From contig CAZPDI010000001.1 of NCBI GenBank assembly GCA_964585425.1, forward strand, positions 4,804 to 68,803: a stretch of DNA of 64,000 nucleotides, given 5' to 3'. The stretch comes from an uncultured Candidatus Saccharibacteria bacterium (lineage in GTDB: Bacteria; Patescibacteriota; Saccharimonadia; UBA4664; CAYXHD01). Made by a program: the position numbers and the translations under genes. Positions 3,035 to 57,778 of the stretch are shown piece after piece (position 1 is the first letter of the stretch; each line of letters starts with the position of its first letter). The notes below the pieces were generated by a model, which did no database searches, had not been told where the DNA came from, and was given only the letters and a program-made list of their open reading frames with translations.

Positions 3035-3136
3035 ATGCTTATTGTAGCAATTTGGCGACTGTTATGCGACAGTTCAGGGGAACATTTATACGAAAAATCC
3101 TTTGGGATGATCCTTGTTCAAAAAAACACTTTTTTG

Positions 3137-3191
3137 CTTATTGCAACTTTGTGGCATTAAGGGGGTCTTATCGCAACTAATTCGCAATAAG
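3137..3191. promoter_or_regulatory. Pair of 25-bp palindromic operator-like boxes (Fur/Zur-family-like)
   Basis: CTTATTGCAACTTTGTGGCATTAAG followed by CTTATCGCAACTAATTCGCAATAAG. Near-identical boxes occur at 60255-60308 next to the Fur-family gene. Confidence 0.5.
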
Positions 3192-3279
3192 CAAACAAGC
3201 CGTTTTTTAGATAGAACCCCGCCCCAGCCCCTGGCTTAAAGGCAAAAGATATGCTAGAATCTGCTAGTTACCCAACCAC

Positions 3280-3365
3280 GCGCGAGTGGTGGAATGGTAG
3301 ACACGCTGGCTTCAGGTGCCAGTGGGGGCAACCCCGTGGAGGTTCAAGTCCTCTCTCGCGCACCA
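3280..3365 (+). tRNA. tRNA-Leu (anticodon CAG)
   Basis: 7-bp acceptor stem GCGCGAG/CUCGCGC. Anticodon stem-loop CUGGC-UUCAGGU-GCCAG. Long variable arm UGGGGGCAACCCCGUG, T-arm GGUUCAAGUCC, and an encoded CCA end. Confidence 0.8.
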
Positions 3366-9977: not shown

Positions 9978-10011
9978 GACAAAGCCAACCTACTACCCCG
10001 AAAGAGGTCCC
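9978..10011. repeat. 5' box of cassette 1 (GACAAAGCCAAC..CCGAAAGAGGTCCCG)
   Basis: Repeated at 10404-10437 before cassette 2. Its reverse complement is found after each stop codon. Confidence 0.6.
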
Positions 10012-10269
10012 GTGACCAAAATCACGAACCGCAGCATCGCTCCTGCTGGCAGCATCTCCCAGATCGCTCAGCTCCACCAGGACGGAGAGATCGACCGCGA
10101 CCAGACCACTCAGGTGATCGAAGTGGTTGCGGAACATGCCGCAGAGGCGCCAAACACCTGTCCGCGCTGTCAGCGCGCCAACTGCCCAGTGACGAGGGGC
10201 GGCAACTGCCAGTTGCCAGACATGAAGGTGGTGGATCACCTGGTTCGTCAGCTGCAGACCTCCAACTGA
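10012..10269 (+). CDS. High-GC small zinc-ribbon-like protein
   Basis: GTG start 3 nt after AAAGAGG. CPRC-x4-C-x7-C cysteine arrangement. GC3 nearly 100%. Confidence 0.5.
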   Translation: MTKITNRSIAPAGSISQIAQLHQDGEIDRDQTTQVIEVVAEHAAEAPNTCPRCQRANCPVTRGGNCQLPDMKVVDHLVRQLQTSN

Positions 10270-10270
10270 T

Positions 10271-10320
10271 CTCGAGTCGGTCCTATGGGATCGAGGGGCG
10301 ACGAGGCTTGGCTTTGTCAC
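10271..10320. repeat. 3' box of cassette 1 (hairpin GGTCCtatGGGATC plus GGCTTGGCTTTGTCAC)
   Basis: The 11-bp core TTGGCTTTGTC is the reverse complement of GACAAAGCCAA in the 5' box. The extended region is an imperfect inverse of the 5' box. Confidence 0.55.
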
Positions 10321-10403: not shown

Positions 10404-10437
10404 GACAAAGCCAACAACTACACCGAAAGGGGTCCCG
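10404..10437. repeat. 5' box of cassette 2 (GACAAAGCCAAC..CCGAAAGGGGTCCCG)
   Basis: Copy of the 9978-10011 box, immediately before the ATG. Confidence 0.6.
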
Positions 10438-11169
10438 ATGGGATCTTCTGGAATTCTGGGGTTTCCCAAGGCTGCACACCGCGCCCCCACCATCAGCGAG
10501 GGGTACCAGGAGTACGTCGAGGAGATGACCGGCCTGGCCGTGTGCATGATCTGCGATAGCGGAACATGCCCCGGCGCCAGTGGACGCGCTTGCCCCTATG
10601 AACTCGACGTCTGCACCGTCTGCTGGCAGCTCGACTGCATTAGCGTCTTCGGTCACGACTGCCCTTCGGAGGAACGCTGCAACAACTGCGGTCACCTCCG
10701 GAACGAATTCGGCCATTACAGCAACTGCTCAATGCCCACAATGAAGCTGTGCGACGAGTGCGGGAGCGCAACCTGTCGCGTCAACCCGCCAAAGGAAATG
10801 CGAGAGGAGTACCCGTCGGACTACAATCCGTACTGGGATGACCACCACAGCATCTTCGATACGCTGGGCTGCCTCTTGGGTAGCCCGATCAGCGAGGAAG
10901 AACGGATCGCGGAAGAGATCGCATCGTGTTGGGCTCCGCGCACCGACCAGATGTCCCGAGATCGAGTACGGCAACAGATGCTGAGAACATGGATTGATCG
11001 TGATCTGGACAAAGCAGCTGAGGAAGCTCAGCAGCGCGCCGACCAGATGTCCCAGTCCATGCATCAGCTCACCGAGCTTGCGGACGACTACGACGACGGA
11101 CTGATCTCCGAGAACGTGGTTCTGATGCTCCTCCGGGCTGATCATCGCGGTGTACGGCTCTCCGGGTGA
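10438..11169 (+). CDS. High-GC cysteine-rich (multi-CxxC) protein with an acidic helical C-terminal half
   Basis: Start chosen at ATG 10438 right after the conserved 5' box. The longer 10372 start lies inside the AT-rich promoter. About 18 Cys in the first ~110 aa, in CxxC pairs. GC3 very high. Confidence 0.5.
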   Translation: MGSSGILGFPKAAHRAPTISEGYQEYVEEMTGLAVCMICDSGTCPGASGRACPYELDVCTVCWQLDCISVFGHDCPSEERCNNCGHLRNEFGHYSNCSMPTMKLCDECGSATCRVNPPKEMREEYPSDYNPYWDDHHSIFDTLGCLLGSPISEEERIAEEIASCWAPRTDQMSRDRVRQQMLRTWIDRDLDKAAEEAQQRADQMSQSMHQLTELADDYDDGLISENVVLMLLRADHRGVRLSG

Positions 11170-11209
11170 CCTTTGAGGGTCGGTGAGCGTCAAGGCTTGG
11201 CTTTGTCAC
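11168..11209. repeat. 3' box of cassette 2 (hairpin GACCtttgagGGTC plus GGCTTGGCTTTGTCAC)
   Basis: Same 16-nt core as 10305-10320, inverse of the 5' box. Confidence 0.55.
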
Positions 11210-11365: not shown

Positions 11366-12103
11366 ATGTCTCAGCTCGTCATCGTCCAGGGCCCCAAGCC
11401 CCGCACGTCCGCGGTGTCCGACAAGGATGCCCACAACCTCCGCCTCCAGGCGGACAAGGTGCTGGCCAGGCACCGCGGTGATCTCCCCCAGGAGATCGTC
11501 ACGCAGCTGACCAGCCCGATGCCCGGCATCGTGGGCATGGGACTGCACGACGCGGCCTCCTGGATCAAGCAGCGCACCGCCAACCTCAAGCTGCAGTACG
11601 TGCAGCAGCACCCCGACTGCGAGGCGGCCATGGCCCTCAAGACCCGAGTCGACAACGTCCTCAACGGCGAGTTCGGCGACAAGGTCAAAAAGAGCCTCGA
11701 CATGCGTGGTCAGCGCATCCTCGAGCTGGACCTGTACCAGATCTTGAGCACCGACCAGCTGAAGAGCTTCGCCCACTTCGTCAAGAAGGCCGAGGCAGTC
11801 GAGGGTCGCTTGCAGACCGAGAAGGCACGCAAGGCGGTGCCGGCCCAATCGCTCCAGATGCTGTTCCCGTCCAAGGAGAAGCGCGAGCGCAAGCCGAAGA
11901 AGGTCAAGCCGGCCTACGCCGGTCTCCCCGCACCGTCCACCGGGATCGTCACCGACTGGAAGAGCGACGTCGGCAGCGTCGGTGCCCCGAACCCCCAGGG
12001 TCCGGCGCCGGCACGCGGCGTCACCCTCCGCAAGTCCGACAAGGCTCGCGCCAAGGGAGTGAAGGGTGGTGGCGTCAAGACCCGTCCGGGGCGACGCAAC
12101 TGA
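11366..12103 (+). CDS. High-GC hypothetical protein with a lysine/arginine-rich C-terminal tail
   Basis: AAGGAAAG RBS. GC3 about 95% in this frame. The antisense ORF 11273..12130 is rejected as a GC artefact. C-terminal tail reads KEKRERKPKKVK...KARAKGVKGGGVKTRPGRRN. Confidence 0.5.
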   Translation: MSQLVIVQGPKPRTSAVSDKDAHNLRLQADKVLARHRGDLPQEIVTQLTSPMPGIVGMGLHDAASWIKQRTANLKLQYVQQHPDCEAAMALKTRVDNVLNGEFGDKVKKSLDMRGQRILELDLYQILSTDQLKSFAHFVKKAEAVEGRLQTEKARKAVPAQSLQMLFPSKEKRERKPKKVKPAYAGLPAPSTGIVTDWKSDVGSVGAPNPQGPAPARGVTLRKSDKARAKGVKGGGVKTRPGRRN

Positions 12104-27704: not shown

Positions 27705-28223
27705 TTATCTAAGATTATCTACTGATTGAGACTGAACCCATATCGGTCCACCAGGGTACTTGTTGAATATATTCCCGTACACTAAATAACTAGCCTTAGT
27801 TGCGGTGAATTCTGCACTGCAATGTAGCTCAGTAGAAGTTCCGTATGTTTTAGTCGAAACGGCCCTCTTGCCAACATACTTGTAATTTAAATCGTACATT
27901 CGCATACTCAATTCTACCGTGGCCCGTCTGCCGCCCGACGCATAAGCACGCACACAGTATCTATATGTGCCACCCTTAGCTATTTTGACAAGCTTTGGCT
28001 CAAAGTCACTACTCTGCACTTCCTTACCCTCTGATATAGACATTTGCCGCTGCGTGCGCCAAAGGGAAACCCATGAGCTAGCGCTACTAAAGCGCACCAC
28101 CAGGGCACCAATGATTGCGACAGCCGCAATGCCGCCAACAATAAGCCATTTATTAACTTTCTTTTTTTGACCGGCTTTAAGTTTTGACTTAGTTACTGGT
28201 TTCTTTGTTGCCTTCGCAGCCAT
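27705..28223 (-). CDS. Membrane-anchored hypothetical protein
   Basis: Lys-rich N-terminus, one TM helix, then an extracytoplasmic domain. Confidence 0.35.
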   Translation of the reverse strand: MAAKATKKPVTKSKLKAGQKKKVNKWLIVGGIAAVAIIGALVVRFSSASSWVSLWRTQRQMSISEGKEVQSSDFEPKLVKIAKGGTYRYCVRAYASGGRRATVELSMRMYDLNYKYVGKRAVSTKTYGTSTELHCSAEFTATKASYLVYGNIFNKYPGGPIWVQSQSVDNLR

Positions 28224-28315: not shown

Positions 28316-28915
28316 CTATTTGCGGACTAAATACTCAGGAATAACATCGGCTGCAAACTCTGGCAGTAAGTTTTTTCCGTAAAATAATCGACTAAAAGCT
28401 TCGGCCTCCCACTTGGCGCCGGTCAGAGCGTTGTGTGGATCAACTTCGTTGGGCAAACCTACATATTGGCAAATATAATGAGAATTAACCGCGCTCATAT
28501 TATTGTTTACCGGAATTCCTATGCCGCGTGCCATCATGTGTGCATAGACCACGCTATGCAGATCCAAGATGCGGTGACCAAGGTCCCAATCGATCTGGTT
28601 GCGACTAAAGGCGGCGTTAAGCATGGCCCAGTCGTTCCAAACGTTCTGACCAGCTAGCGTACGATCTTTGGCTTGATTGGCCCATTCTATAAATTGTTTA
28701 GCAAGCTCACCGAGTGTCGGTTTATTGGAATCTTTGATTTCTTCTTGGCTGAAGCCGTTGATCTGCATCGCGATCGGATCGGTGGTGGCCCAATCGGGCA
28801 ACTGACATTCACCATAAAACTCACGACTCGGATCATTCATATCTATTGCACCCAAGCTCAAAATGGCGTGCTTATTTGGATCTAAACCGCTAAATTCTCC
28901 ATCAACAACTATCAT
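28316..28915 (-). CDS. DEDD-family 3'-5' exonuclease (DnaQ/RNase T-like)
   Basis: VVDGEFSGLDP (Exo I) and later H/D motifs. Confidence 0.5.
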   Translation of the reverse strand: MIVVDGEFSGLDPNKHAILSLGAIDMNDPSREFYGECQLPDWATTDPIAMQINGFSQEEIKDSNKPTLGELAKQFIEWANQAKDRTLAGQNVWNDWAMLNAAFSRNQIDWDLGHRILDLHSVVYAHMMARGIGIPVNNNMSAVNSHYICQYVGLPNEVDPHNALTGAKWEAEAFSRLFYGKNLLPEFAADVIPEYLVRK

Positions 28916-29496
28916 ACTTCTAGTTCCTTTCCTCTGAACTCGGGCAGCTGCATAAGTTCTTCGATCGAGTTTGCATTTTTAAATATGTCTGAATAATAAC
29001 GTAAACGCTGCTTAGCTCCAAGTGATTTGAACTCATCAAGGGTCATATATTCTACAACTATCTTCTCACCATTATCCATATTTTGATCAATTTGCTCATC
29101 AAAATCAGTTGCGACAAACGTATATACAAGCCAATCCACCTTATGAACCGGCGCCGATACGGTAACAAGTTTCCAGCTCTTAAATCGTAAGCCAGTCTCT
29201 TCGGCGAGCTCACGTTGCGCGGCCTGAAGTTCAGTTTCGGCCTCAACGTCGTGACGACCCGCCGGAATATCATAGAACTCTTTTGTGCCGGGCTGCTGCT
29301 CATGCACTACTACCAACTTATCGTCCTTAATAGCTATTACTTCAACGGTGTCAGGGCGCTTAAGCATCTCAAAGGTTTCGACGCTGCCATCAAACATGGT
29401 TTGTTGCCAGTGATATACATCAAAAATAACTCCATCAAAAACTTTCTGCGCCTTGTCCGGCAGGAGCTGTGCGTTCTCAGGAACAACCGTTCGCAT
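28912..29496 (-). CDS. NUDIX hydrolase
   Basis: Nudix box GRHDVEAETELQAAQRELAEETGL. Confidence 0.7.
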   Translation of the reverse strand: MRTVVPENAQLLPDKAQKVFDGVIFDVYHWQQTMFDGSVETFEMLKRPDTVEVIAIKDDKLVVVHEQQPGTKEFYDIPAGRHDVEAETELQAAQRELAEETGLRFKSWKLVTVSAPVHKVDWLVYTFVATDFDEQIDQNMDNGEKIVVEYMTLDEFKSLGAKQRLRYYSDIFKNANSIEELMQLPEFRGKELEV

Positions 29497-29500
29497 AGGT

Positions 29501-30028
29501 CTACTGTGCGGCTTCGATTGATTTCTTAATTACTTCGCGAGCTTCGGCGGCGTTGCCCCAGCCGTTAAAGCTAACTGGCGTACCTGCCCAATCCTTCTTC
29601 CAATCCTTGTAGTGAGTATAGAAATGCTCCACAACTTTTTTAAATTCTGGGCCAAGATCTTCTACTTCTTGTATGTGGCTCTTGCTAACATCATCTGCGG
29701 CTACACAAATGAGTTTTTCGTCACCTTCGCCATCATCAATCATATTAAGCACGCCAATGGCGCGAGCCGGAACAACGATACCGGCTGGAACAGATTCGTC
29801 AATTATCACTAAGGCGTCGAGTGGATCGCCGTCATCACAAAGCGTTTCTGGCACATACCCATAATCGGCCGGATAGCCAAGAACTGTTCCGTTTACACGA
29901 TCAAGCGTGATCATGCCCGTTTCTTTATCCATTTCGTATTTGTTGCGACTACCTTTTTGAATTTCGATAATAACGTTGATTTCGTCTGGGGCGTTTTTGC
30001 CCGGACCAATGTGGGTGTGATGACTCAT
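29501..30028 (-). CDS. ppa: Inorganic pyrophosphatase
   Basis: Family I PPase motifs (DGDPLDALV, EIQKGSRNKYE). Confidence 0.9.
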   Translation of the reverse strand: MSHHTHIGPGKNAPDEINVIIEIQKGSRNKYEMDKETGMITLDRVNGTVLGYPADYGYVPETLCDDGDPLDALVIIDESVPAGIVVPARAIGVLNMIDDGEGDEKLICVAADDVSKSHIQEVEDLGPEFKKVVEHFYTHYKDWKKDWAGTPVSFNGWGNAAEAREVIKKSIEAAQ

Positions 30029-30088
30029 ATAAGCTTCCTTTTATCTGGTTAGATTATAGCAAAGCCGGCACATTTGCACCACAATTAC

Positions 30089-30117
30089 TTGATTAAATAT
30101 TACTTTTATAGTAGAGT
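30089..30117 (+). promoter_or_regulatory. Predicted sigma70 promoter for the 30.2-kb cassette
   Basis: TTGATT, 17-nt spacer, TAGAGT. Confidence 0.4.
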
Positions 30118-30135
30118 TTGCTTATTCTTTTACAA

Positions 30136-30150
30136 TCTAGCTAATCAGCC
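30136..30150. repeat. Left inverted repeat TCTAGCTAATCAGCC
   Basis: 14 of 15 positions match the reverse complement of 30607-30621. Confidence 0.55.
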
Positions 30151-30181
30151 CACCACAACCAAACAAACAAAGGAGCGAGCG

Positions 30182-30556
30182 ATGATCACATGTGAAGTGC
30201 AGGACCAGGCTGGCGGGAAGTCCACGAGCGTCATCACCCTCGGTGATGCCCTGGCTGCCGTTGCCTACCTGATCGGCATCAGCGGGAACTCCCAGCTTGA
30301 GTACCACGAGCTGATCGAGGGCCAGTCGTTGACCATCATCTCGGAAGGACATGCCCTCGTTGGGCAGATCGAGATGCCGGACTTCGAGGAGGAGGAGCCC
30401 TACTTCGGCCTGATGTACACCTTCTCCAGCAACGGCGATCGCGACTTCGAGCTGTTCAGCCTGCTGGTTCTGCCGGCAATGTTGCTGAACCTGCAGCAAT
30501 GCGAACCGCAGGTGATCATCGAGCTCGAGCGGATGCGCCAACCGGTGACCGCCTGA
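30182..30556 (+). CDS. High-GC hypothetical acidic protein (124 aa)
   Basis: AAGGAG RBS 7 nt upstream. GC3 high. No family recognised. Confidence 0.5.
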   Translation: MITCEVQDQAGGKSTSVITLGDALAAVAYLIGISGNSQLEYHELIEGQSLTIISEGHALVGQIEMPDFEEEEPYFGLMYTFSSNGDRDFELFSLLVLPAMLLNLQQCEPQVIIELERMRQPVTA

Positions 30557-30575
30557 GGTTGCGGTGAGTAGGCCA

Positions 30576-30593
30576 GGTTCCCTCCGGGGAATC
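30576..30593 (+). terminator. Hairpin GGTTCCC-TCCG-GGGAATC
   Basis: Same hairpin type as the GGTCCC..GGGATC family. No immediate T-run. Confidence 0.35.
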
Positions 30594-30606
30594 TGTGCCG
30601 ACCACC

Positions 30607-30621
30607 GGCTGATTGGCTAGA
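30607..30621. repeat. Right inverted repeat GGCTGATTGGCTAGA
   Basis: Reverse complement of the left repeat at 30136-30150. Confidence 0.55.
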
Positions 30622-30630
30622 TAAAAAGAT

Positions 30631-31191
30631 TTATGATAAAAGTTTTTGAACTTGCGAGATCGAGGTATACAGCTCGGCTTGTAAGCCGGCTCGCAGGGCG
30701 CCGTCGACGTTGGCTTGGCGATCATCAAAGAATATAACATCTTGAGCCTCAAAACCTAATTGCTGTACAGCATACTGGTAAATACGAGCATCGGGCTTCA
30801 TCATATTTAATTCACCCGAAATAAAGATTTGATCAAAATGCCGAGTAATACCATGACCTTCCATATACGGCCGTAAGCTTGAGCCATCATTAGAAAGCAC
30901 GGCGGTTTTTATTCCCTTTTGTCGCAACTGATCAATGACTGCCAGCAAGGGGTGGTTGATAGCTACTTCGTTTTTAAGCTCCTGCTTAACAACCGAAACG
31001 GGACGTCCCACCCCGGCGGCTAATGCTTCGAAATACTGGTCTAGGCTAATCTCGTCCAGATCAATTTTGCGAGATGCCTCTTTTACCACATCATGGATGT
31101 CAGGATGTTGCGCTACTTGGTTTTCGGCCCAAATAATAACTTCGTCCGTTTGGATAACGCCATAAAAATCAAAGATGGCCGCTTTAATCAT
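30631..31191 (-). CDS. HAD-superfamily hydrolase
   Basis: N-terminal FDFYGVI (DxD-type motif I). Confidence 0.65.
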   Translation of the reverse strand: MIKAAIFDFYGVIQTDEVIIWAENQVAQHPDIHDVVKEASRKIDLDEISLDQYFEALAAGVGRPVSVVKQELKNEVAINHPLLAVIDQLRQKGIKTAVLSNDGSSLRPYMEGHGITRHFDQIFISGELNMMKPDARIYQYAVQQLGFEAQDVIFFDDRQANVDGALRAGLQAELYTSISQVQKLLS

Positions 31192-39977: not shown

Positions 39978-40006
39978 TTGCATTATGTCGCAAAATATGA
40001 TTAAAT
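39978..40006 (+). promoter_or_regulatory. Predicted promoter of module 1
   Basis: TTGCAT, 17-nt spacer, TTAAAT. The TGATTAAAT block recurs in the 40688 promoter. Confidence 0.35.
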
Positions 40007-40040
40007 AGTATGGTTCTGCTACCTATCCCTAAGGATTCCA

Positions 40041-40415
40041 ATGAATGCACCTGCCCGTCCCATGCCCGACATCACCGATGTGGAGCTGACCAAGAAGATC
40101 ATCGATGAACGTGTGAAGCACCACAACCTGCGCCATGAAGATGGTGAAGCGATCTGGATGGTAGTCACGGCCATCGGTCATGCCATCAAGATCGGTGATC
40201 CTCAGTACAGCCCGATGATCGACCGCAACGTCACGGGGCTGCGCAACGAGGCGAGGCCAGGCGAAGTTCCGGTCATCTTGCTGTCCGACCTGAACCGCAT
40301 CTTCTGTGACGACACGTTGATACGCGAGCTGCAGCGGGTGTTCCCGAGCATCGTCAATGATGCGGCGCGCGTTGCCTGCTGGAAGTTCCGCAACTGCATG
40401 TACGGATGCGACTGA
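40041..40415 (+). CDS. High-GC hypothetical protein (124 aa), module 1 gene A
   Basis: TAAGGAT RBS. GC3 high. No family recognised. Confidence 0.45.
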   Translation: MNAPARPMPDITDVELTKKIIDERVKHHNLRHEDGEAIWMVVTAIGHAIKIGDPQYSPMIDRNVTGLRNEARPGEVPVILLSDLNRIFCDDTLIRELQRVFPSIVNDAARVACWKFRNCMYGCD

Positions 40416-40417
40416 TC

Positions 40418-40627
40418 ATGCGCCTTCGGATCCCCTGGCGCAAGCAAACCGTGCCGCCGCCACCCGCGACTGTCGCGATGAAGGCTGCGCCCCTGGTGCC
40501 GCCACCTCATCGCCGGATGACGGCCGAAGAACGCGCTGCGTGCTGCCAAGATCAGAGGAAGATCAAGCTGCGTGCTGCCAAGCGTTGTCGGCGCAAGGCC
40601 CGAAAGCGCCGACTGCGCAACAAGTAA
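40418..40627 (+). CDS. Pro-rich/basic small protein, paralog 1 (alternative start 40406)
   Basis: GACTGATCATG junction with the upstream gene is conserved in paralog 42234..42467. Differences between the paralogs are often synonymous in this frame. Confidence 0.5.
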   Translation: MRLRIPWRKQTVPPPPATVAMKAAPLVPPPHRRMTAEERAACCQDQRKIKLRAAKRCRRKARKRRLRNK

Positions 40628-40645
40628 CCCCCGTGAGGCGGATCG

Positions 40646-40680
40646 CCGAAAGGTCCCTCTTGCGGGGGATCTTTCGTTAT
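40646..40680 (+). terminator. Family hairpin GAAAGGTCCC-tcttgcg-GGGGATCTTTC plus GTTAT
   Basis: 9-bp stem including G-U pairs, with a U-rich tail. Confidence 0.5.
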
Positions 40681-40687
40681 GGTGATA

Positions 40688-40716
40688 TTGATTTATACCT
40701 GTAAATGTGATTAAAT
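40688..40716 (+). promoter_or_regulatory. Predicted promoter of unit 2
   Basis: TTGATT, 17-nt spacer, TTAAAT. AAAGGAGAG RBS follows. Confidence 0.35.
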
Positions 40717-40750
40717 TTCCCTATTCCGTTTCGAGTCCAAAGGAGAGACC

Positions 40751-40984
40751 ATGACGGACGCACATGCCACGGCCGTCTCCACGGTCTATTTTTGGCTCGA
40801 GTACGAGTTGGGTATCGATAATCCTGATCACGTTGAACTGACCATGATTATCGAGAATGGCTGGCTGCGCTATCGGTGCCCGGCCCACGACATCACCCCG
40901 CTTGAAATCGCCCGCCTCGAAGCTGCCTGCCGGCACCACGCCCATTCTCTTGAAGTGCACCTGAACCTGGAGGTTCAATCATGA
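40751..40984 (+). CDS. High-GC small hypothetical protein (77 aa)
   Basis: AAGGAGAG RBS. ATGA overlap with the next gene. Confidence 0.4.
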   Translation: MTDAHATAVSTVYFWLEYELGIDNPDHVELTMIIENGWLRYRCPAHDITPLEIARLEAACRHHAHSLEVHLNLEVQS

Positions 40985-41733
40985 TTGTCCACAAGCACGA
41001 CATCGATACCGCAGCTCGTCTGGCCGCCAAAGAGCGGTTCATGAACGAGTCATGGCTGGATGATCGCAAGGTGCGATCATGGTTCGCTTGGCTCGGTATC
41101 CGTCCTGACGGTCATCAAGCATTGCGCATCTTGCGCGCTGTGCATGCCACGGCTGCCACCGTGCGTGAGTACAAGATCCACCATCGCCACACGCGCTTCG
41201 GTCGAACGATGCGCCTGCAGCGCCGGCTCCCACCGTGGCCCGCCAAGTACGCGGATACCCCGGTCATCAATGCCGCGCAGATGCTGCTGGTGACTCAGCG
41301 CACGGACTACATCCACCTCACGGAGCTGACGCGACCAATTACGGGTACCAGTTATCGGCACGGCGACAATCGACGCGTCGATATGGAAACGTGCAAGATG
41401 TTCCTGGAGAACGTGCAGAGCAAGTTCATGCGCGAAGCCGTTTGGTCAGATGAGTTGGTATGTATCGAGAGCTTTGCGCGGCTCGGCCTGACGCCCGATG
41501 AGCTGCTGGTGGCCGAGATGGCTCTGATCCGTCTGATGAGTAGGTATCGGCACGAAAAGGGGCTTACCTGGTATCTGATGCCGACCTATGGCAGCCGGAG
41601 CCGCCGCTTGCACACCCTCACCATGGGTGATTTCTTGAACATCACCCGATTTCTCCAACCCAACTATGGCGACACCGACATGGAGTTTCTCATGACGCTG
41701 GCCGATCGTCTGCGTTCGCGACTTGCGACCTGA
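40981..41733 (+). CDS. High-GC hypothetical protein (250 aa)
   Basis: GC3 high. Translationally coupled to the preceding ORF. No family recognised. Confidence 0.45.
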   Translation: MIVHKHDIDTAARLAAKERFMNESWLDDRKVRSWFAWLGIRPDGHQALRILRAVHATAATVREYKIHHRHTRFGRTMRLQRRLPPWPAKYADTPVINAAQMLLVTQRTDYIHLTELTRPITGTSYRHGDNRRVDMETCKMFLENVQSKFMREAVWSDELVCIESFARLGLTPDELLVAEMALIRLMSRYRHEKGLTWYLMPTYGSRSRRLHTLTMGDFLNITRFLQPNYGDTDMEFLMTLADRLRSRLAT

Positions 41734-41764
41734 TCTCGACACATACCCTCGCGGGGGCTTTTCT

Positions 41765-41798
41765 ACGGAAAGGTCCCTGCGGGGGATCTTTCGTTTAT
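41765..41798 (+). terminator. Family hairpin ACGGAAAGGTCCC-TGCGG-GGGATCTTTCG plus TTTAT
   Basis: Near-identical copy at 42492-42525. Confidence 0.55.
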
Positions 41799-41801
41799 AG
41801 C

Positions 41802-41830
41802 TTGCAATATCAATACTTTAAATGTATAAT
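41802..41830 (+). promoter_or_regulatory. Predicted sigma70 promoter of module 2
   Basis: TTGCAA, 17-nt spacer, TATAAT. AAGGAG RBS at 41849. Confidence 0.5.
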
Positions 41831-41859
41831 TTGTAAATCCGTACGACCAAGGAGTACCC

Positions 41860-42231
41860 TTGACCGAAGCCAATACCCTACCCAAGGCCGATGCCAGCGT
41901 CAAGCTGTCCGACGACATCATCGCAAGCTGCTACGAGGGCTGCGATCCCCGTGAGTCCGATCGAGCTCGCGGCTGCATCGCCGCCCTCAAGGACCTGCTA
42001 CGGCTCGCCGAGAAGACGCCGAACGACGCGCGCTACCAGGAGATCCGGGAGTTCGACGCCGACACCCTGACCGTTGGCCAGTTCATCACCCTGATGTACC
42101 TGCCGGCGATGTCGCCGAATCAGCCCCGCCAGCTGATGCGCAACGTGCGTAGCAACTGGGGGCGACTCAACCAGCGAGTTCTCATCGAGCTGCGAGACAA
42201 GCTGGATGAGCGCTACGAGCCCCAGGACTGA
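41860..42231 (+). CDS. High-GC hypothetical protein (123 aa), module 2 gene A
   Basis: TTG start 6 nt after AAGGAG. GC3 high. Not similar to 40041..40415. Confidence 0.45.
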   Translation: MTEANTLPKADASVKLSDDIIASCYEGCDPRESDRARGCIAALKDLLRLAEKTPNDARYQEIREFDADTLTVGQFITLMYLPAMSPNQPRQLMRNVRSNWGRLNQRVLIELRDKLDERYEPQD

Positions 42232-42233
42232 TC

Positions 42234-42467
42234 ATGGGCATCTGGAACTCTCGGCGCAAGAAGACGACACCACCGCCACCTCCTCCTGCACCTCCTCCGC
42301 CGCCCGCGGCTGTCGCGATGAAGACTGCACCACTGGCGCCGCCACCGCGTCGCCGAATGACGGCCGAAGAACGCGCCGCTCTCAAGCTGCCCAAAGTGAA
42401 GGCCCGGCAGCGCCTGGCCAAGAACCGACGCGCCAAGGTCAGGAAGCGCAAGCACAAGAAGTCCTGA
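42234..42467 (+). CDS. Pro-rich/basic small protein, paralog 2
   Basis: PPPPPPAPPPPPAAVAMKTAPLAPPPRRRMTAEERAA plus a K/R-rich tail. About 85% nucleotide identity to the 40418 paralog in the central part. Confidence 0.5.
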   Translation: MGIWNSRRKKTTPPPPPPAPPPPPAAVAMKTAPLAPPPRRRMTAEERAALKLPKVKARQRLAKNRRAKVRKRKHKKS

Positions 42468-42491
42468 TCGCGCCCCTGTGGGGACTTTTCT

Positions 42492-42525
42492 ACGGAAAGG
42501 TCCCTGCGGGGGATCTTTCGTTTTT
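42492..42525 (+). terminator. Family hairpin plus T5
   Basis: ACGGAAAGGTCCCTGCGGGGGATCTTTCGTTTTT. Confidence 0.55.
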
Positions 42526-42603
42526 AAATGAGAAAGACCCAGGATTTCTCCTAGGTCTAGGGGCCAGGGATTCGACTACCCTGCACCCCCATCCACAACC
42601 TGT

Positions 42604-43119: not shown

Positions 43120-43545
43120 CTAGAGCCCCTCTATAAATGTCTCGATAAAGCTATTCAGCTTGCTGCCAACTCGAGTAATGATCGAGTCTCGCTCCAAAAT
43201 CTTGGGCTTAGCTATTAATGTAGCGGCAATCTCATTGCGGCGTGGCTTGCGGCCAGTGAATAAGTAATCGTTAATCAGTTTTTGCAATTCATCGGTCATT
43301 AGACCTTCTTCAACACACATGGCCTCAAAAGCTTTAGCGCGCTCGACATTCCAGAACGAATCAAACTCACCAGCTACATCTTCAGGATTCTCGATCTTGG
43401 GTAGCGATCGGGCAATAAATTTCTCAATCAGCTCGCGCTTGCTACGCAGCACGGCATTGCCCATAAGCGTGTTATTAAGATTATCGATTATCTGAGCTTT
43501 TTTTGATCTTCCGACATAACCCCTCGCTTTGTGTCTATTGTACAC
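43120..43545 (-). CDS. Stand-alone fragment resembling the C-terminal helical domain of a type I restriction enzyme R subunit (possible remnant)
   Basis: 141 aa. The ..FW..E.AKAFE..C.EE.L....L.K.I..YLFT.RKP.R.EI...L..KPK.LER..I..R.. pattern is recalled from HsdR C-termini. No helicase or nuclease part and no hsdM/hsdS nearby. Confidence 0.3.
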   Translation of the reverse strand: MYNRHKARGYVGRSKKAQIIDNLNNTLMGNAVLRSKRELIEKFIARSLPKIENPEDVAGEFDSFWNVERAKAFEAMCVEEGLMTDELQKLINDYLFTGRKPRRNEIAATLIAKPKILERDSIITRVGSKLNSFIETFIEGL

Positions 43546-44283: not shown

Positions 44284-44393
44284 CGTGTCCGTTCTTCAAA
44301 GTGGGGTTTTTGAGCTCGAGAAAGTCGATGATGGGTTGGATACCTACCTTGGCCGAAGTAGTAACTTCTAGGCCTTTATCATTTATGTAGTGC

Positions 44394-44422
44394 TTGCTTT
44401 TTTATAAGTTTTATGCTAGTAT
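44394..44422 (+). promoter_or_regulatory. Predicted sigma70 promoter
   Basis: TTGCTT, 17-nt spacer, TAGTAT. AAAGGAAA RBS before ATG 44458. Confidence 0.4.
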
Positions 44423-44457
44423 ATACGCATCTTGGCCGTCTAGCAAAAGGAAACATC

Positions 44458-44868
44458 ATGCCAAGCGCACAGACCATCCTCCCTCTGACCGCCGAACAGG
44501 TGGCCATGCCCGTGACCGCTGCCATCCTCACCACGGAGGACATCATCGGCGACCACGGGAGGTACCCGAAGGACATCGCTCACAGCTTGTCCACCATCTG
44601 CGAGTTCCTGCAGGAGGTCAAGCGGGAGGTCAAGCAGAGTCCAAGGGCCTACCTCGGCTGGTTGGAGTTGGCGGATGAGAACGGGGTGCGCTTCAGCGAG
44701 CGCGATTACCCCAGCATCACCGCAGGGTTCCTCCTGGCCGTGATGGAATCCAGCGCCGCCTGGGGCACCGTGATGAAGCACGGTCCGGAGGACTACTGCT
44801 TCGAGCAGCTGAACATGCTGAGGACGGCGGTCTACGCCCTCCTCTTCAAGCGGTCGCTGGCTGGCTGA
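44458..44868 (+). CDS. High-GC hypothetical protein (136 aa)
   Basis: Start at the first ATG after the RBS. GC3 high. Confidence 0.5.
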   Translation: MPSAQTILPLTAEQVAMPVTAAILTTEDIIGDHGRYPKDIAHSLSTICEFLQEVKREVKQSPRAYLGWLELADENGVRFSERDYPSITAGFLLAVMESSAAWGTVMKHGPEDYCFEQLNMLRTAVYALLFKRSLAG

Positions 44869-44894
44869 GGTTCTTCCTCCGCCAGCACCACGCC

Positions 44895-44934
44895 CCACTC
44901 GGGGTCTTCTACGGAAGACTCCGAGTGGGTTTTT
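44895..44934 (+). terminator. Hairpin CCACTCGGGGTCTTC-TACG-GAAGACTCCGAGTGG plus T5 and CGTTTAT
   Basis: 15-bp near-perfect stem. The CTACGGAAG and TTTCGTTTAT tail is shared with the hairpin family. Confidence 0.55.
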
Positions 44935-44944
44935 CGTTTATGCC

Positions 44945-54688: not shown

Positions 54689-55771
54689 CTACCCTGTCCA
54701 GCGCTGACGCTGCAGATCCTCTACCTGCCAACGCAACGTTTGTCCCGCCCGGAATGGCACCACCCCGCCGATCTCTTCAGGCACAGCCCAGGGGATCCTC
54801 GACAACAACACATAATTGTCGTCTTGTGGGGGCTCGACGCCGTAGAACTTGCAACCAGCAATGGAGACAAACTGCTCCAGCCTCTCCGGCCAGTCCTCCA
54901 GACCACTGTCCTCGAACAGTTCCGCCAGCACCGGCAGAGCAACTGGTCCGGAATACACGCCGTTGTTAGGCTTTGCCTTCAGCTTGTCCTCGATTCGATG
55001 AGGCGCCGAGTCGCTACCGAAGAAGATCTTGGGCGGATCACCCGGCTTGACACTGAGCATCGCAGCCAAGATGGCTTGACGATCTTCCTCGGTCTTGGCT
55101 CGCGGCAAACAGGCATGATGCGGCTGATCGATGACACCATCGTGCTCAACGTCATTAATGGTCAAGCATGGATGATGAGCCGTGATGGTGGCAGCGACGT
55201 TGGCCGGCAGCTCCATGATGAGGTTGATGGCATCGGCAGAAGAGACGTGCTCGAAGACGATTCGCAGACCCGGGAATGCCTCATGCACCTCCATGAACAG
55301 CTCGAGGAACATCTGCTCAGCATGAGCGAGATCGTCGGTTGAGACTTCGCCGTGCACGTTAAGCACGACATCAAGCTCCTGCATCACTTCAAATACTGGC
55401 CACCCGTCGTGGATATCCCGCAAACCAAAACCCGAATGAGTCGTGGTGTTGTACGGATAATACTTGACCGAACAGAATCCGTTGCGACGTTCGTACATCA
55501 GACGGATGATCGCTTCATCAGTGTCTGGCGTGAGGTACAAGGTCGGCCACAAGTTCACCATGTTCAGGCCTTTCAGCCCTGCCTGCACCTCTTGCAGATA
55601 GTGGAACGCATGCATAGCGTCACTTACTGGCACCGGGTTGAGGTTTGGCATGAGCAAGGCGTAATGGAGATGACCAATGCTGGGACGAACAACATCTTTC
55701 AGCAGACGTCCTTGACGAACATGAACGTGCCAATCGCTCGGACGACGCATCTTGAGTGCCAAGTAGGGCAT
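54689..55771 (-). CDS. pyrC: Dihydroorotase, type II (E. coli-like homodimeric form)
   Basis: LKMRRPSDWHVHVRQG, LMPNLNPVPV, KYYPYNTTTHSGFG, VHGEV, RIVFEHVSS, AATITAHH, FFGSDSAPH, VVPFRAGQTLRWQV all align with E. coli PyrC. High GC. Confidence 0.85.
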   Translation of the reverse strand: MPYLALKMRRPSDWHVHVRQGRLLKDVVRPSIGHLHYALLMPNLNPVPVSDAMHAFHYLQEVQAGLKGLNMVNLWPTLYLTPDTDEAIIRLMYERRNGFCSVKYYPYNTTTHSGFGLRDIHDGWPVFEVMQELDVVLNVHGEVSTDDLAHAEQMFLELFMEVHEAFPGLRIVFEHVSSADAINLIMELPANVAATITAHHPCLTINDVEHDGVIDQPHHACLPRAKTEEDRQAILAAMLSVKPGDPPKIFFGSDSAPHRIEDKLKAKPNNGVYSGPVALPVLAELFEDSGLEDWPERLEQFVSIAGCKFYGVEPPQDDNYVLLSRIPWAVPEEIGGVVPFRAGQTLRWQVEDLQRQRWTG

Positions 55772-55807
55772 GGTGAGTCCTTTCGGGACGTTGTGAGTGA
55801 ACGAACA

Positions 55808-55827
55808 AAGGTGTGCCTAAGCACACC
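55808..55827. promoter_or_regulatory. Perfect palindrome AGGTGTGC-CTAA-GCACACCT in the pyrC leader
   Basis: 8-bp arms. Lies between the pyrC start and the pyrE terminator. Confidence 0.3.
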
Positions 55828-55871
55828 TCCATAACCATTACTATACACTATTATTCATAAATTGCGAGCGT

Positions 55872-55901
55872 CTGGGCCAGGGGAACTCTCCCCCGGCCCA
55901 G
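55872..55901 (-). terminator. Hairpin downstream of pyrE, preceded on the plus strand by TTCATAAATTGCGAGC
   Basis: CTGGGCCAGGGG ... CCCCGGCCCAG inverted repeat. Confidence 0.45.
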
Positions 55902-55923
55902 CGCGAACCGTTGAATACGGGGC

Positions 55924-56583
55924 TCAGGCTGCGAGTAACTGGACCCAGCCACCCTCGTACTGCGGGTTGACCTCATCGCGGTAGTGGGCACCGTGACCCA
56001 GCGCACCATCGACAACAATGGGCTTGCCAGCTTCACAGAGCGGACAAGCTTCGGCGTCGTAGGACGCGAAGTCCACGTGCGTCAGCTGCTCCAACCGGGG
56101 AACTCCGATGGCGTCAGCCTCCACACCGCCTCGGTTGCAGACGGCACTGATGCCGATCACCTCACCACCACAGGCTTCGATGGCCGCGCAGGTGCCCTGA
56201 ACCGAACTGCCAGTGGTCAGCAGATCCTCGATCACGAGAACGCGTTTGTTCTGCAGGTGCTGCGGGAAGCTCAGGCGATCGACCACGAAGTTGTTGCCCT
56301 CCTTGTCGGCCCACAGGCCAGGCACACGAAGACCCTTCTTGTGCAGTAGCCAGTTCGAGGCAGTGCTGGTGAGCGCCACGCCACCGGTTGCCGGTGATGC
56401 GACAACATCGAAACCGCCGTCGAATGGTCTGAGGAGATCCGAGACGATCTGGCTGAGCATCACTGGATCAGCGAAGATCGGGTCCATGCAGATGTAGCCC
56501 TCACCGTGTCCACCCTTCTTGTACACGAAGTGGTTGTCGAGAAAGACGGCTCCGACCTTCTGGAGGTACTCGAGAATGTCCAT
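55924..56583 (-). CDS. pyrE: Orotate phosphoribosyltransferase
   Basis: Start taken at MDILEY (TAGGAACG RBS). PRPP-binding motif VLVIEDLLTTGSS. High GC. Confidence 0.7.
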   Translation of the reverse strand: MDILEYLQKVGAVFLDNHFVYKKGGHGEGYICMDPIFADPVMLSQIVSDLLRPFDGGFDVVASPATGGVALTSTASNWLLHKKGLRVPGLWADKEGNNFVVDRLSFPQHLQNKRVLVIEDLLTTGSSVQGTCAAIEACGGEVIGISAVCNRGGVEADAIGVPRLEQLTHVDFASYDAEACPLCEAGKPIVVDGALGHGAHYRDEVNPQYEGGWVQLLAA

Positions 56584-56666
56584 GTGCGTTCCTAACGTGA
56601 GACGAATGCGCCAACTGGTCACATCCGAATTATTATCCTATTCATAAAAGTTATTTACAAGCATAA

Positions 56667-56734
56667 GTGTGTCGCCGGACGGGTGGGCAAAAAGTTTACA
56701 GTCCGAAGACCTTCTTCCTCCTCGCCCACCCGTC
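56667..56734 (-). terminator. Long-loop hairpin downstream of pyrF
   Basis: GGACGGGTGGGC ... GCCCACCCGTCC 12-bp arms. Confidence 0.35.
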
Positions 56735-56742
56735 CGAGCATG

Positions 56743-57675
56743 TCAGGCCGCCAGGCGAACTCGCTCGATGGTCTCGTGCATGTTGGAGGCCTCAGCTTCC
56801 GACGCCTCAGCCGGAGCCAGACCCTCGTACTGCTGGTTGTCGTGAGCATGGGTGATGCCGCTCGAGGAGTTGATGGCGATGCCAGCCTGCTGGCTGTTGT
56901 GTCCGTTCTGGTAGGCGGCTGCAGCGTCACCGCCCTGCTTGTTTCCTACCCCAGGGATCAGGATCGGAACCTGCTCGCCAACACAACGACGAACGTTGGC
57001 AAGGTCGTCGATGGACTCGGGACTTGCGCCGGCCACCACACCGACGTTGCCTCGCTTGTTCCAGCCCTCCAGGCTGGCGACGTTCTGTGCGACTCGCTCG
57101 TACAGGAAGCCCTCCATAGTCACGCCCATGAGGGTTGACGAGCAGGTATCAAGCTTCTGGAACTCCTCGGCGCCAGGGTTGGATGTACGAGTCAGTACGA
57201 AGACCCCCTTGTCGCCACGGTCCAGCCACGGGGCCATGGCCTGTGCACCCATGTAGTTGTGGACGGTGACTGCATCAGCTCCGCAGACGTCGTAGGCGAA
57301 CGAGGCGTAGGTGTCATTGGTCGCTCCGATGTCGCCGGCCTTGAGGTCAAGGATCTTGACGACATCTGGCGCGTGGGTACGCATGTGCTTGAAGAGCAAC
57401 TCCAATGCCTGGATGCCTTCATGGCCATGCTTGAGGTAGAACCCCAAGTTGGGTTTCATCCAGCCGACTTTGCCGGCCAGGGCCTCGACGATCGGGAACA
57501 AGAAGGTGGTGAGCGTACCGCAGATGCTGGCCCGCTGGAAGCCCTCCGGGATGCGTGTGATCACCGGATCATCCTCGCGATAGGTGCTCTTGAGCGTTGG
57601 GTCGAGACCGGCGCAGACTGCACGGTGCTGCCCGGCGTTCAAGGCCACGAGCTCCGAAAAGCTGAGGTCGGACAT
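56743..57675 (-). CDS. pyrF: Orotidine-5'-phosphate decarboxylase, type 2 (long form)
   Basis: Start taken at MSDLSF after GGAGAGGAG. VCAGLDP and DLKAGDIGATN (type-2 D.K.GDIG.T motif). High GC. Confidence 0.7.
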   Translation of the reverse strand: MSDLSFSELVALNAGQHRAVCAGLDPTLKSTYREDDPVITRIPEGFQRASICGTLTTFLFPIVEALAGKVGWMKPNLGFYLKHGHEGIQALELLFKHMRTHAPDVVKILDLKAGDIGATNDTYASFAYDVCGADAVTVHNYMGAQAMAPWLDRGDKGVFVLTRTSNPGAEEFQKLDTCSSTLMGVTMEGFLYERVAQNVASLEGWNKRGNVGVVAGASPESIDDLANVRRCVGEQVPILIPGVGNKQGGDAAAAYQNGHNSQQAGIAINSSSGITHAHDNQQYEGLAPAEASEAEASNMHETIERVRLAA

Positions 57676-57778
57676 GTCAGACTCCTCTCCCATCTGACGA
57701 TGAGATAGATTCGTGCGACCGAATTAGCCACATCCATATTAGTATGGTTTCTGGGACGCTTAAGAGCAAGCGTAAGAG

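Follow-up and report, generated by a model that had tools for sequence, protein, structure and literature searches.

A predicted three-way junction joining the untranslated regions of a hypervariable, GC-rich small gene in Candidatus Saccharibacteria

Introduction

In Bacillus subtilis, a 14-bp interaction that links the 5' untranslated region (UTR) of the hbs messenger with its 3' UTR modulates leader cleavage by RNase Y (Braun, Durand & Condon 2017, PMC5737220), and in Staphylococcus aureus the 3' UTR of icaR pairs in cis with its own 5' UTR (Ruiz de los Mozos et al. 2013, PMC3868564). Moreover, in type I toxin mRNAs, such as those of hok/Sok and aapA1/IsoA1, the 5' end of the full-length transcript pairs with its 3' end (PMC9841398, PMC5416894). 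In this context, we analysed a stretch of 64,000 nucleotides (hereafter, the window) from an uncultured Candidatus Saccharibacteria bacterium (contig CAZPDI010000001.1 of assembly GCA_964585425.1), in which a GC-rich cassette carrying a 124-aa open reading frame (ORF124) stands between ppa and a HAD hydrolase gene. The UTRs of this cassette appear to be joined by a conserved three-way junction, a structure that we regard as well supported, and the inverted repeat that forms part of it probably acts as an end-pairing helix in the sense transcript of the small gene, stabilising or processing this transcript.

A conserved three-way junction in the untranslated regions

ORF124 occupies 30182..30556 of the plus strand, between ppa (29501..30028, minus strand) and the HAD gene (30631..31191, minus strand); the identity of the latter was confirmed by Pfam and that of ppa comes from the Pfam annotation of relatives. 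A first-pass annotation, made from the letters of the window, had described here an isolated high-GC cassette with its own promoter, an AAGGAG ribosome-binding site (RBS), a 3' hairpin and a 15-bp inverted repeat, matched at 14 of 15 positions, lying inside both UTRs. The open reading frame (ORF), promoter, RBS and hairpin were all recovered in place, and the description of a discrete high-GC unit with a functional-looking repeat in its UTRs stands, GC content climbing from ~0.40-0.45 to 0.58-0.62 inside the unit bounded by the repeat arms. The repeat itself is present and proved to be 16 nt long, with 15 of 16 positions matching (30135-30150 with 30607-30622).

The closest ppa genes, retrieved by a genome-contig search with ppa that yielded the L009 locus, all belong to Candidatus Saccharibacteria/Saccharimonadia metagenome-assembled genomes, and with ppa homologues as anchors the ppa-HAD locus was recovered from 15 further contigs. 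Base pairs were counted on the aligned 5' and 3' UTRs of 11 complete cassettes from eight loci (one cassette each in the window, L002, L085, L088 and L092; two each in L009, L086 and L096), partial cassettes being present in L084, L085, L091, L093 and L103. The features of the cassette in the window are as follows.

30052..30094: apparent degenerate duplicate of the 3' end of HAD, on the ppa side of the insertion (aligned to the HAD end of L094)
30089..30117, plus strand: promoter-like element, TTGATT (30089-30094), 17-nt spacer, TAGAGT (30112-30117) (sequence reading)
30135..30150, plus strand: 5' strand of helix P1, the left repeat arm ATCTAGCTAATCAGCC, pairing with 30607-30622
30151..30160, plus strand: 5' strand of helix P2, CACCACAACC, directly adjoining P1 and pairing with 30557-30566
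30161..30181, plus strand: CA-rich and mostly unpaired leader, with the Shine-Dalgarno sequence AAGGAG at 30170-30175 (sequence; minimum free energy, MFE, and centroid folds)
30182..30556, plus strand: ORF124, an acidic, lineage-restricted, fast-evolving small protein (codon-position GC, homology searches)
30557..30566, plus strand: 3' strand of P2, GGTTGCGGTG, beginning right after the stop codon (pair counts, fold)
30571..30599, plus strand: local hairpin P3, a GGC/GCC closing stem plus AGGTTCCC-UCCG-GGGAATCT (RNAalifold, 12 3' UTRs)
30600..30606, plus strand: conserved junction segment GACCACC, with CCAC invariant (UTR alignment, RNAalifold)
30607..30622, plus strand: 3' strand of P1, right arm of the repeat, GGCTGATTGGCTAGAT; the convergent HAD stop codon (30631) is 8 nt away (sequence, pair counts)

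The pair counts over the 11 cassettes were:

P1 (30135-30150 with 30607-30622): 16 pairs, 98.9% of cells paired, 3 pairs changed on both sides
P2 (30151-30160 with 30557-30566): 10 pairs, 92.7% of cells paired, 1 pair changed on both sides
P3 closing stem (30571-30573 with 30597-30599): 3 pairs, 100% of cells paired, 2 changed on both sides

Over P1, P2 and the closing stem of P3 together, 96.9% of the cells are paired and 6 pairs are altered on both sides. The compensations in P1 are A-U to C-G at position 10, C-G to U-A at position 15 and G-C to A-U at position 6, and that in P2 is A-U to G-C in the first cassette of L009. By consensus, CACCACAACC after the left arm pairs with GGTTGYGGTG after the stop codon, and the GGC/GCC closing stem of P3 covaries, being GACAC/GTGTC in L088. 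None of 500 column shuffles equalled the real alignment in its pairing, its covariation score or its count of double changes, and when the partner strand was slid by 1-3 columns the pairing fell to 20-43%. Furthermore, of the 22 pairs that RNAalifold returned for 12 3' UTRs, 10 are changed on both sides, almost all within the P3 hairpin, whose inner part (AGGTTCCC-TCCG-GGGAATCT) spans 30575-30594 and whose stem carries a G.U to A-U change in L002.

Folding of the full-length sense RNA (30124-30630), a check that the first-pass annotation had proposed, brings the arms of the 5' and 3' UTRs together: P1, P2 and P3 are present in both the MFE and the centroid structure (z = -6.85), and the antisense strand folds with z = -4.0. 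In both structures the RBS and leader are mostly single-stranded, GAGC of the RBS region pairing weakly with the ORF. RNAalifold also yields a short helix of YGGTG with CACCG that competes with P2, and when the 3' UTR is folded alone, GGTG of the P2 3' strand can pair locally with CACC at 30603-30606 (P2alt), so that the junction segment 30600-30606 may be an alternative partner of that strand. Across the relatives, the UTR modules remain ~80-90% alike while the ORFs drop to 27% identity or below detection. In L103 the left arm reads ATTGAGTTAGCCAGCC, different at five positions, and the RNA model would predict a right arm near GGCTGGCTAACTCAAT, G.U pairs being allowed. In Rfam, the sole match of the window at gathering score was its tRNA, with none for the cassette structure; at a permissive threshold, the best scores were 14.8-17.6 bits, against gathering scores of 43-58 (E 0.66 to 5.6).

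The pairing of the two arms could have been a functionless chance match, and by itself the repeat is statistically unremarkable: in Markov-1 simulations of the 64-kb window, 16-mer inverted pairs with at most one mismatch, 100-1000 nt apart, occurred 0.4 times on average (maximum 2), and the window holds 2, besides 191 weaker ones (13 nt or more, within 1.5 kb). The first-pass annotation would have given up its reading had similar 15-mers turned up at many random places in the genome; in the window, 15-mer pairs number 4, against 2.0 expected. The repeat is lifted above chance because its pairing is kept in the cassettes of relatives with compensatory changes, in genomes whose ppa DNA is only 71-80% identical, and because P2 and P3 adjoin it; a chance origin is accordingly barely credible. 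The single mismatch between the arms is, on the sense strand, a U.G wobble.

Sense-strand RNA or single-stranded DNA

Several lines favour pairing in sense-strand RNA rather than in single-stranded DNA. By our own tally from the pair tables, the non-Watson-Crick cells on the sense strand comprise ~27 G.U and ~8 A.C, and the P3 loops include tetraloops of the UNCG type (UCCG, UUCG). The cassette promoter matches the consensus at 8 of 12 positions and was not called by the promoter scanner; its -35/17-nt/-10 layout is kept 5' of the left arm in most relatives' cassettes, and the constant spacing of 16-17 nt between promoter and P1 favours the RNA reading. Moreover, the 26-nt 5' strand is continuous while its 3' partners are split around a hairpin, that of P2 lying 40 nt away from the right arm, which points to the folding topology of a single strand, not to protein sites on duplex DNA or transposon ends.

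A very unlikely alternative is that the structure forms in single-stranded DNA, as an attC-like or Xer-like recombination site through which ORFs are exchanged, integron-style, in a fixed expression frame. The locus resembles integron cassettes in its short, compositionally deviant ORFs within a conserved frame, in a copy number that varies at a fixed site and in an ORF content that is shuffled while the flanks stay constant; folded DNA would tolerate G.T pairs, and in tandem cassettes the right arm makes a local palindrome with the left arm that follows it, at a distance of 20 nt in L086 and of 53 nt in L009, L085 and L096. However, the last cassette of an array is followed by no second left arm and thus lacks a complete attC-like site, no R'/R'' core (GTTRRRY/RYYYAAC) was seen on reading the arms and the junction, neither intI nor attI lies among the neighbours, and most cassettes have their own promoter. 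Pairing across ~470 nt would also be unlikely in transiently single-stranded DNA. Unlike unrelated captured genes, the ORF types look like paralogues of one family, and homologous recombination through ppa/HAD or the 26-70 nt UTR modules, together with unequal crossing-over, suffices to explain the shuffling and the variation, in keeping with the mosaic identity profile and the variant at a second locus of this kind (A, below).

Possible role of the end pairing

In the proposed mechanism, the first 26 structured nucleotides of the leader (P1, then P2), following a short 5' tail, would find their partners in two stretches of the 3' UTR that lie apart from each other, and the P3 hairpin, between the 3' strands of P2 and P1, would complete a three-way junction tying both ends of the mRNA, with the CA-rich leader, its Shine-Dalgarno sequence and the ORF remaining as an enclosed loop. 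The paired ends, together with an ORF that is strongly folded and rich in GC at third codon positions (GC3), would shield the ends from RNase Y/J and from 3' exonucleases; alternatively, the junction would offer a defined processing site. The result would be a transcript that is long-lived and insulated, and this may be relevant as the gene lies head-on within the trxB-HAD-ppa string, and the competing local helix in the 3' UTR suggests that the structure may switch. We infer that the junction protects or processes the mRNA ends.

A number of observations weigh against this reading. The predicted transcription start gives a 5' tail of ~10 nt, longer than would be ideal for blocking decay that depends on the 5' end. 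The shuffle controls overstate significance, the sequences being related, and the wobble asymmetry rests on few independent events (~5 against 2-3); in 5 of the 11 cassettes P2 has an A.C mismatch, which the antisense strand would form as G.U. If two inverted protein-binding sites changed in concert, P1 could seem to covary, though this would not account for the split partners of P1 and P2. An outward extension of P1 (P0, UCUUUU/AAAAGA) was considered and rejected, being not conserved (own flanks -1.2 against -0.5 kcal/mol for mismatched ones, on average). Finally, L087 has lost the 5' strand of P1 by deletion while its gene is intact, and P1 is thus dispensable at least in the short term; relatives with the ORF and no repeats, which the first-pass annotation had held would tell against it, are in this way half found, since L087 retains the right arm and P2.

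Sense-strand complementarity between segments 5' of the start codon and 3' of the stop codon, maintained by compensatory change in relatives, would place the cassette with the hbs/icaR class of cis 5'/3' UTR pairing. As in hbs, a helix of ~14-16 bp runs from leader to 3' UTR in a short, strongly translated monocistronic mRNA, with a strong Shine-Dalgarno sequence and a proposed control of ribonuclease access to the leader. The cassette differs from hbs in having two consecutive helices (26 nt of leader) and a hairpin arranged as a three-way junction, and the two have no sequence relation, one being a hypervariable orphan gene of a saccharibacterium and the other a conserved housekeeping gene. 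In icaR, a 3' UTR motif reportedly occludes the Shine-Dalgarno sequence and represses translation, and the pairing is said to be linked to RNase III cleavage and mRNA decay. At ORF124, in contrast, the RBS lies downstream of P1 and P2 and stays largely free; two other cassettes of the window, A1 and A2, are closer to the icaR layout.

Both ends of the transcript are predictions, resting on a promoter with conserved spacing and on a 3' end at which a scan called no terminator. We consider it doubtful that the three-way junction is mainly a terminator or insulator that stops head-on transcription of the cassette into HAD-trxB. Only 8 nt do separate the end of the right arm from the convergent HAD stop, there is a GC hairpin before the arm and, in most relatives, a U-rich stretch such as UUUUACUUAU after it, but in the window and in L002 the arm is followed by AAAAAGAU, so no U-tract is conserved, the terminator scan found none at the right arm, and the 5' strand of the stem lies 470 nt upstream, unlike a canonical intrinsic terminator.

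It also seems unlikely that the pairing is a lock of the hok/aapA1 type, in which the full-length mRNA stays translationally inert until 3' processing and the protein is toxic or dangerous. End pairing combined with P2alt does recall how type I toxin mRNAs fold metastably (PMC5416894, PMC9841398), the alternative helices suggest refolding after processing, and in A1 and A2 the pairing covers the RBS region. However, the RBS of type I toxin mRNAs is sequestered, whereas P1 and P2 leave the Shine-Dalgarno sequence (30170-30175, outside both helices) and the start codon largely unpaired, and the products are proteins of 113-164 aa, ORF124 being acidic, rather than membrane-inserting hydrophobic peptides of at most ~60 aa. 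Neither an antisense RNA gene nor, in a consensus scan, a minus-strand promoter was detected inside the cassette, the scan being insensitive, as it also missed the sense promoter.

Insertion history of the ppa-HAD site

Alignment against relatives in search of an empty site, as the first-pass annotation had recommended, bore out the insertion: in L094, L095 and L104 the cassette is absent and the HAD stop lies only 24-26 nt from the ppa start, with otherwise identical synteny. L103 had also seemed empty from its gene calls and was rejected as such, since the 167-aa gene called there is an antisense ORF of a GC-rich cassette and the site is occupied. A neighbour-joining tree of ppa (no support values) puts the genomes with an empty site at the base and groups the occupied ones in one clade, suggesting that the cassette was inserted once, in the ancestor of this clade of Saccharibacteria.

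When aligned to L094, where the site is empty, positions 30052-30094 of the window match the 3' end of HAD over ~43 nt, a score reached by 0 of 2000 shuffles. From this alignment we read them as a second, decaying copy of that end, and every occupied locus has this remnant. The -35 of the cassette comes from the distal end of the remnant, on whose minus strand GATTATAGCAAAG may be read as TGCTATAAT, a putative extended -10 for ppa. A short target-site duplication was considered and discarded, as the left remnant matches ~43 nt of the HAD end instead. In the second cassettes of L009, L085 and L096, a copied HAD-end piece, TTATGACAAT, serves as the -35, and these copies indicate unequal crossing-over. 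The number of cassettes per site varies between 0, 1 and 2, with ORF types that differ between genomes.

The first-pass annotation had treated the repeats as the terminal inverted repeats of an element. The corresponding explanation is a mobile DNA cassette that is not autonomous and depends on a transposase or recombinase whose gene lies elsewhere. A GC-rich unit bounded almost exactly by the arms, a site that is empty in some relatives and a content that changes between genomes would agree with this explanation, which we nevertheless find quite unlikely and do not retain. The left arm lies ~40 nt inside the left edge of the new DNA and ~70 nt inside the junction between HAD stop and remnant, so that the arms are off the insertion junctions; no short target duplication of the kind that abuts the ends of miniature inverted-repeat transposable elements or insertion sequences was found, the flanking duplication being the ~43 nt of HAD. 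The UTR modules occur in one copy in the 64-kb window; all matches in the 104 loci examined, as well as both matches of a metagenome scan, are at ppa-HAD, apparently in the one clade of the ppa tree, and a viral-contig scan with the left arm and leader gave no match. Being off the junctions and having no copy at another locus in these searches, the arms do not behave as transposon ends. No recombinase, transposase or integrase is encoded among the neighbours gap, RNase T-like, NUDIX, ppa, HAD, trxB, grx, mscL and ltaS, and neither the split partner of P2 nor a G.U bias would be expected of duplex ends.

Comparison with L002 reveals a recombination mosaic, with 80-100% identity in 100-nt bins outside two replaced tracts. 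The synonymous divergence (dS) of ORF124 from L002 is 0.048, against 0.18-1.4 in the flanks; a recent transfer of the cassette, which this low value might indicate, was rejected, as the mosaic region has other tracts of 99-100% identity. In the same region, next to the cassette, a 172-aa ORF without Pfam match and a NUDIX hydrolase (27705-28223, 28912-29496) have ~56% protein identity to their L002 counterparts, while the genes on either side of this pair are 96-99% identical, which suggests allelic replacement or hypervariable genes within the mosaic. Several contigs end within the cassette or at its edge (L089 and L090, 30 nt upstream of ppa; L084, L091, L093 and L103), a pattern that fits population-level variation defeating assembly. 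In L086 (1100-1152), the second cassette begins 20 nt after the first and has no promoter of its own, with no -35/-10 arrangement; at this distance the right arm of the first and the left arm of the second can form a 16-bp hairpin. The two genes are probably co-transcribed, with a possible processing site between them.

ORF124 and its family

ORF124 is supported as coding by its codon-position periodicity (GC at positions 1, 2 and 3 of 0.62/0.35/0.84), by an in-frame 3-nt insertion in L002, by a reading frame that survives extreme divergence and by conserved RBS spacing. The predicted protein has an isoelectric point of 4.1 and a grand average of hydropathy of 0.14, and the products across cassettes show no obvious long hydrophobic segment. 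Among 5.8e9 proteins, the only homologues found were ORF124 itself and P0002 (92% identity); phmmer on 1.84e9 representatives added one true homologue, P0124 (42% identity), whereas four large repeat proteins (MBG, Ig-like, cadherin and one other) were discarded as unrelated repeat families scoring through summed weak matches. The remote homology search that the first-pass annotation had called for thus gave ORF124 no family, fold or defence-system match: Pfam, PHROGs and PADLOC returned nothing, and for the ORFs of six relatives and the other cassette ORFs the same three gave only one marginal PADLOC match (E 0.042). tblastn of ORF124, B3 and A3 (the latter two from other cassettes of the window) against 50,697 phage records found nothing. 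An AlphaFold2 model built on a four-sequence alignment (predicted local distance difference test 67, predicted template modelling score 0.63) had no Foldseek match in the PDB, the best template modelling score being 0.35 with E values of at least 0.017, and no fold was assigned.

In pairwise BLAST, ORF124 matches its L009 orthologue at 27% identity (E 2e-7) and gives no match to the neighbouring L009 cassette ORF. A joint alignment of the ORF types displays the shared pattern YTF..G(D)..DF...P..C..QV, and a profile-profile comparison of two types gave a collinear match of 60 columns (E 0.0055, with a probability of only 6.6%). These weak signs of homology would be consistent with the ORF types being diverged paralogues of one family. 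Between ORF124 and L002 there are 9 non-synonymous and 4 synonymous changes, a ratio of non-synonymous to synonymous divergence (dN/dS) of 0.67, against 0.01-0.06 in conserved flanking genes, two neighbours being themselves highly divergent. Diversification through tandem duplication, recombination and rapid amino-acid change is the best explanation for this family.

The GC3 anomaly

The GC content of ORF124 is 0.60 and its GC3 is 0.84, against a GC3 of 0.43-0.53 (~0.47) in neighbouring core genes. This surplus is confined to codon position 3, GC1 and GC2 equalling those of core genes, and GC3 stays at 0.80-0.89 across orthologues sharing only 27% identity (0.65 in L092). A donor among Actinobacteria or their phages was considered and dropped: with GC1 and GC2 like those of the host and no homologue outside the clade, recent import from a high-GC source is unsupported. 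As amelioration should have erased a foreign signature at a locus held for so long, GC3 must be kept up by some process, be it selection on mRNA structure or stability, biased gene conversion or codon matching.

It is a long shot, but the promoter and the end-paired UTR frame might constitute a chassis for durable mRNAs of rapidly diversifying genes, with GC3 kept high by selection rather than by recent transfer. In an extreme form of this idea, the transcripts or products could act in a high-GC actinobacterial host on which the bacterium lives as an epibiont, and to whose translation system their codon usage would be tuned; in a milder form, the site could be an integron-like locus without recombinase, where recombination between UTR modules raises GC3 through biased gene conversion.

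Other cassettes and islands in the window

The first-pass annotation had compared ORF124 with cassettes at 10-12 kb and proposed a general mechanism. In the region 9.96-12.15 kb, three GC-rich orphan cassettes, A1 (10012-10269), A2 (10438-11169) and A3 (11366-12103), each with a near-consensus promoter, are flanked by a Peptidase_M24 gene (Xaa-Pro aminopeptidase-like) and a uvrA-like gene. In A1 and A2, left arms GACAAAGCCAAC (9978-9989 and 10404-10415) face right arms GGCTTGGCTTTGTC (10305-10318 and 11194-11207), a 5'-3' UTR pairing that uses a repeat unrelated to that of ORF124 and extends over the RBS. This independent recurrence speaks for the end-pairing reading. The proposal thus stands for A1 and A2, which share the design with a different repeat, and not for the remaining cassettes: A3, B2-B4 and C1 show no significant 5'-3' UTR complementarity, and that of B1 is only nominal (z -2.7), with no long continuous helix. 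L101 and L102 carry one A-type mosaic cassette where the window has two, its 5' UTR like A1 and its downstream flank like A2, and gain and loss through conserved UTR modules therefore operates at the A locus too.

The B (40.0-42.5 kb) and C (44.4-44.9 kb) cassettes are likewise GC-rich orphan ORFs equipped with promoters. Their array (40000-42560 and 44390-44935) comprises B1 (40041-40415), B2 (40751-40984), B3 (40981-41733), B4 (41860-42231) and C1 (44458-44868), and sits between two NYN-domain genes and a remnant of the C-terminus of a type I restriction R subunit (43120-43545). A terminator-like hairpin, GAAAGGTCCCTGCGGGGGATCTTTCGTTT, recurs in the B array near 40650, 41770 and 42500, and two paralogous small ORFs, proline-rich and very basic (40418-40628 and 42235-42468), overlap the preceding stop codons (TGATCATG).

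Elsewhere in the window, a GC-rich island (0.54-0.63) at 54689-57693 encodes an amidohydrolase (dihydroorotase-like), a phosphoribosyltransferase (pyrE-like) and an OMP decarboxylase, and looks like a block for pyrimidine synthesis gained by horizontal transfer, the genome having ~47% GC. Just upstream of the only tRNA gene of the window, at 3120-3208 and 3280-3362, there is a 42-nt imperfect palindrome (76% complementary, 5-nt loop).

Conclusions

In brief, the UTR structure of the ORF124 cassette is new, whereas end pairing as a post-transcriptional device was already known. To our knowledge, pairing in cis between 5' and 3' UTRs has been documented for only a handful of bacterial mRNAs, none of them in the Candidate Phyla Radiation, whose RNA biology is, as far as we know, essentially unstudied. 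The structure is compact (~100 nt), supported by covariation and absent from Rfam, and the locus is a caution that a GC island with an inverted repeat need not mean a mobile element. The gene family that it frames is hypervariable, GC3-anomalous and restricted to one Saccharibacteria clade, and it bears the marks of an arms race: an orphan gene with high dN/dS, variable copy number and paralogues shuffled between genomes. For molecular evolution, it poses the puzzle of a family held at a single locus through deep divergence that has kept a GC3 of ~0.84 in a genome where GC3 is ~0.47.

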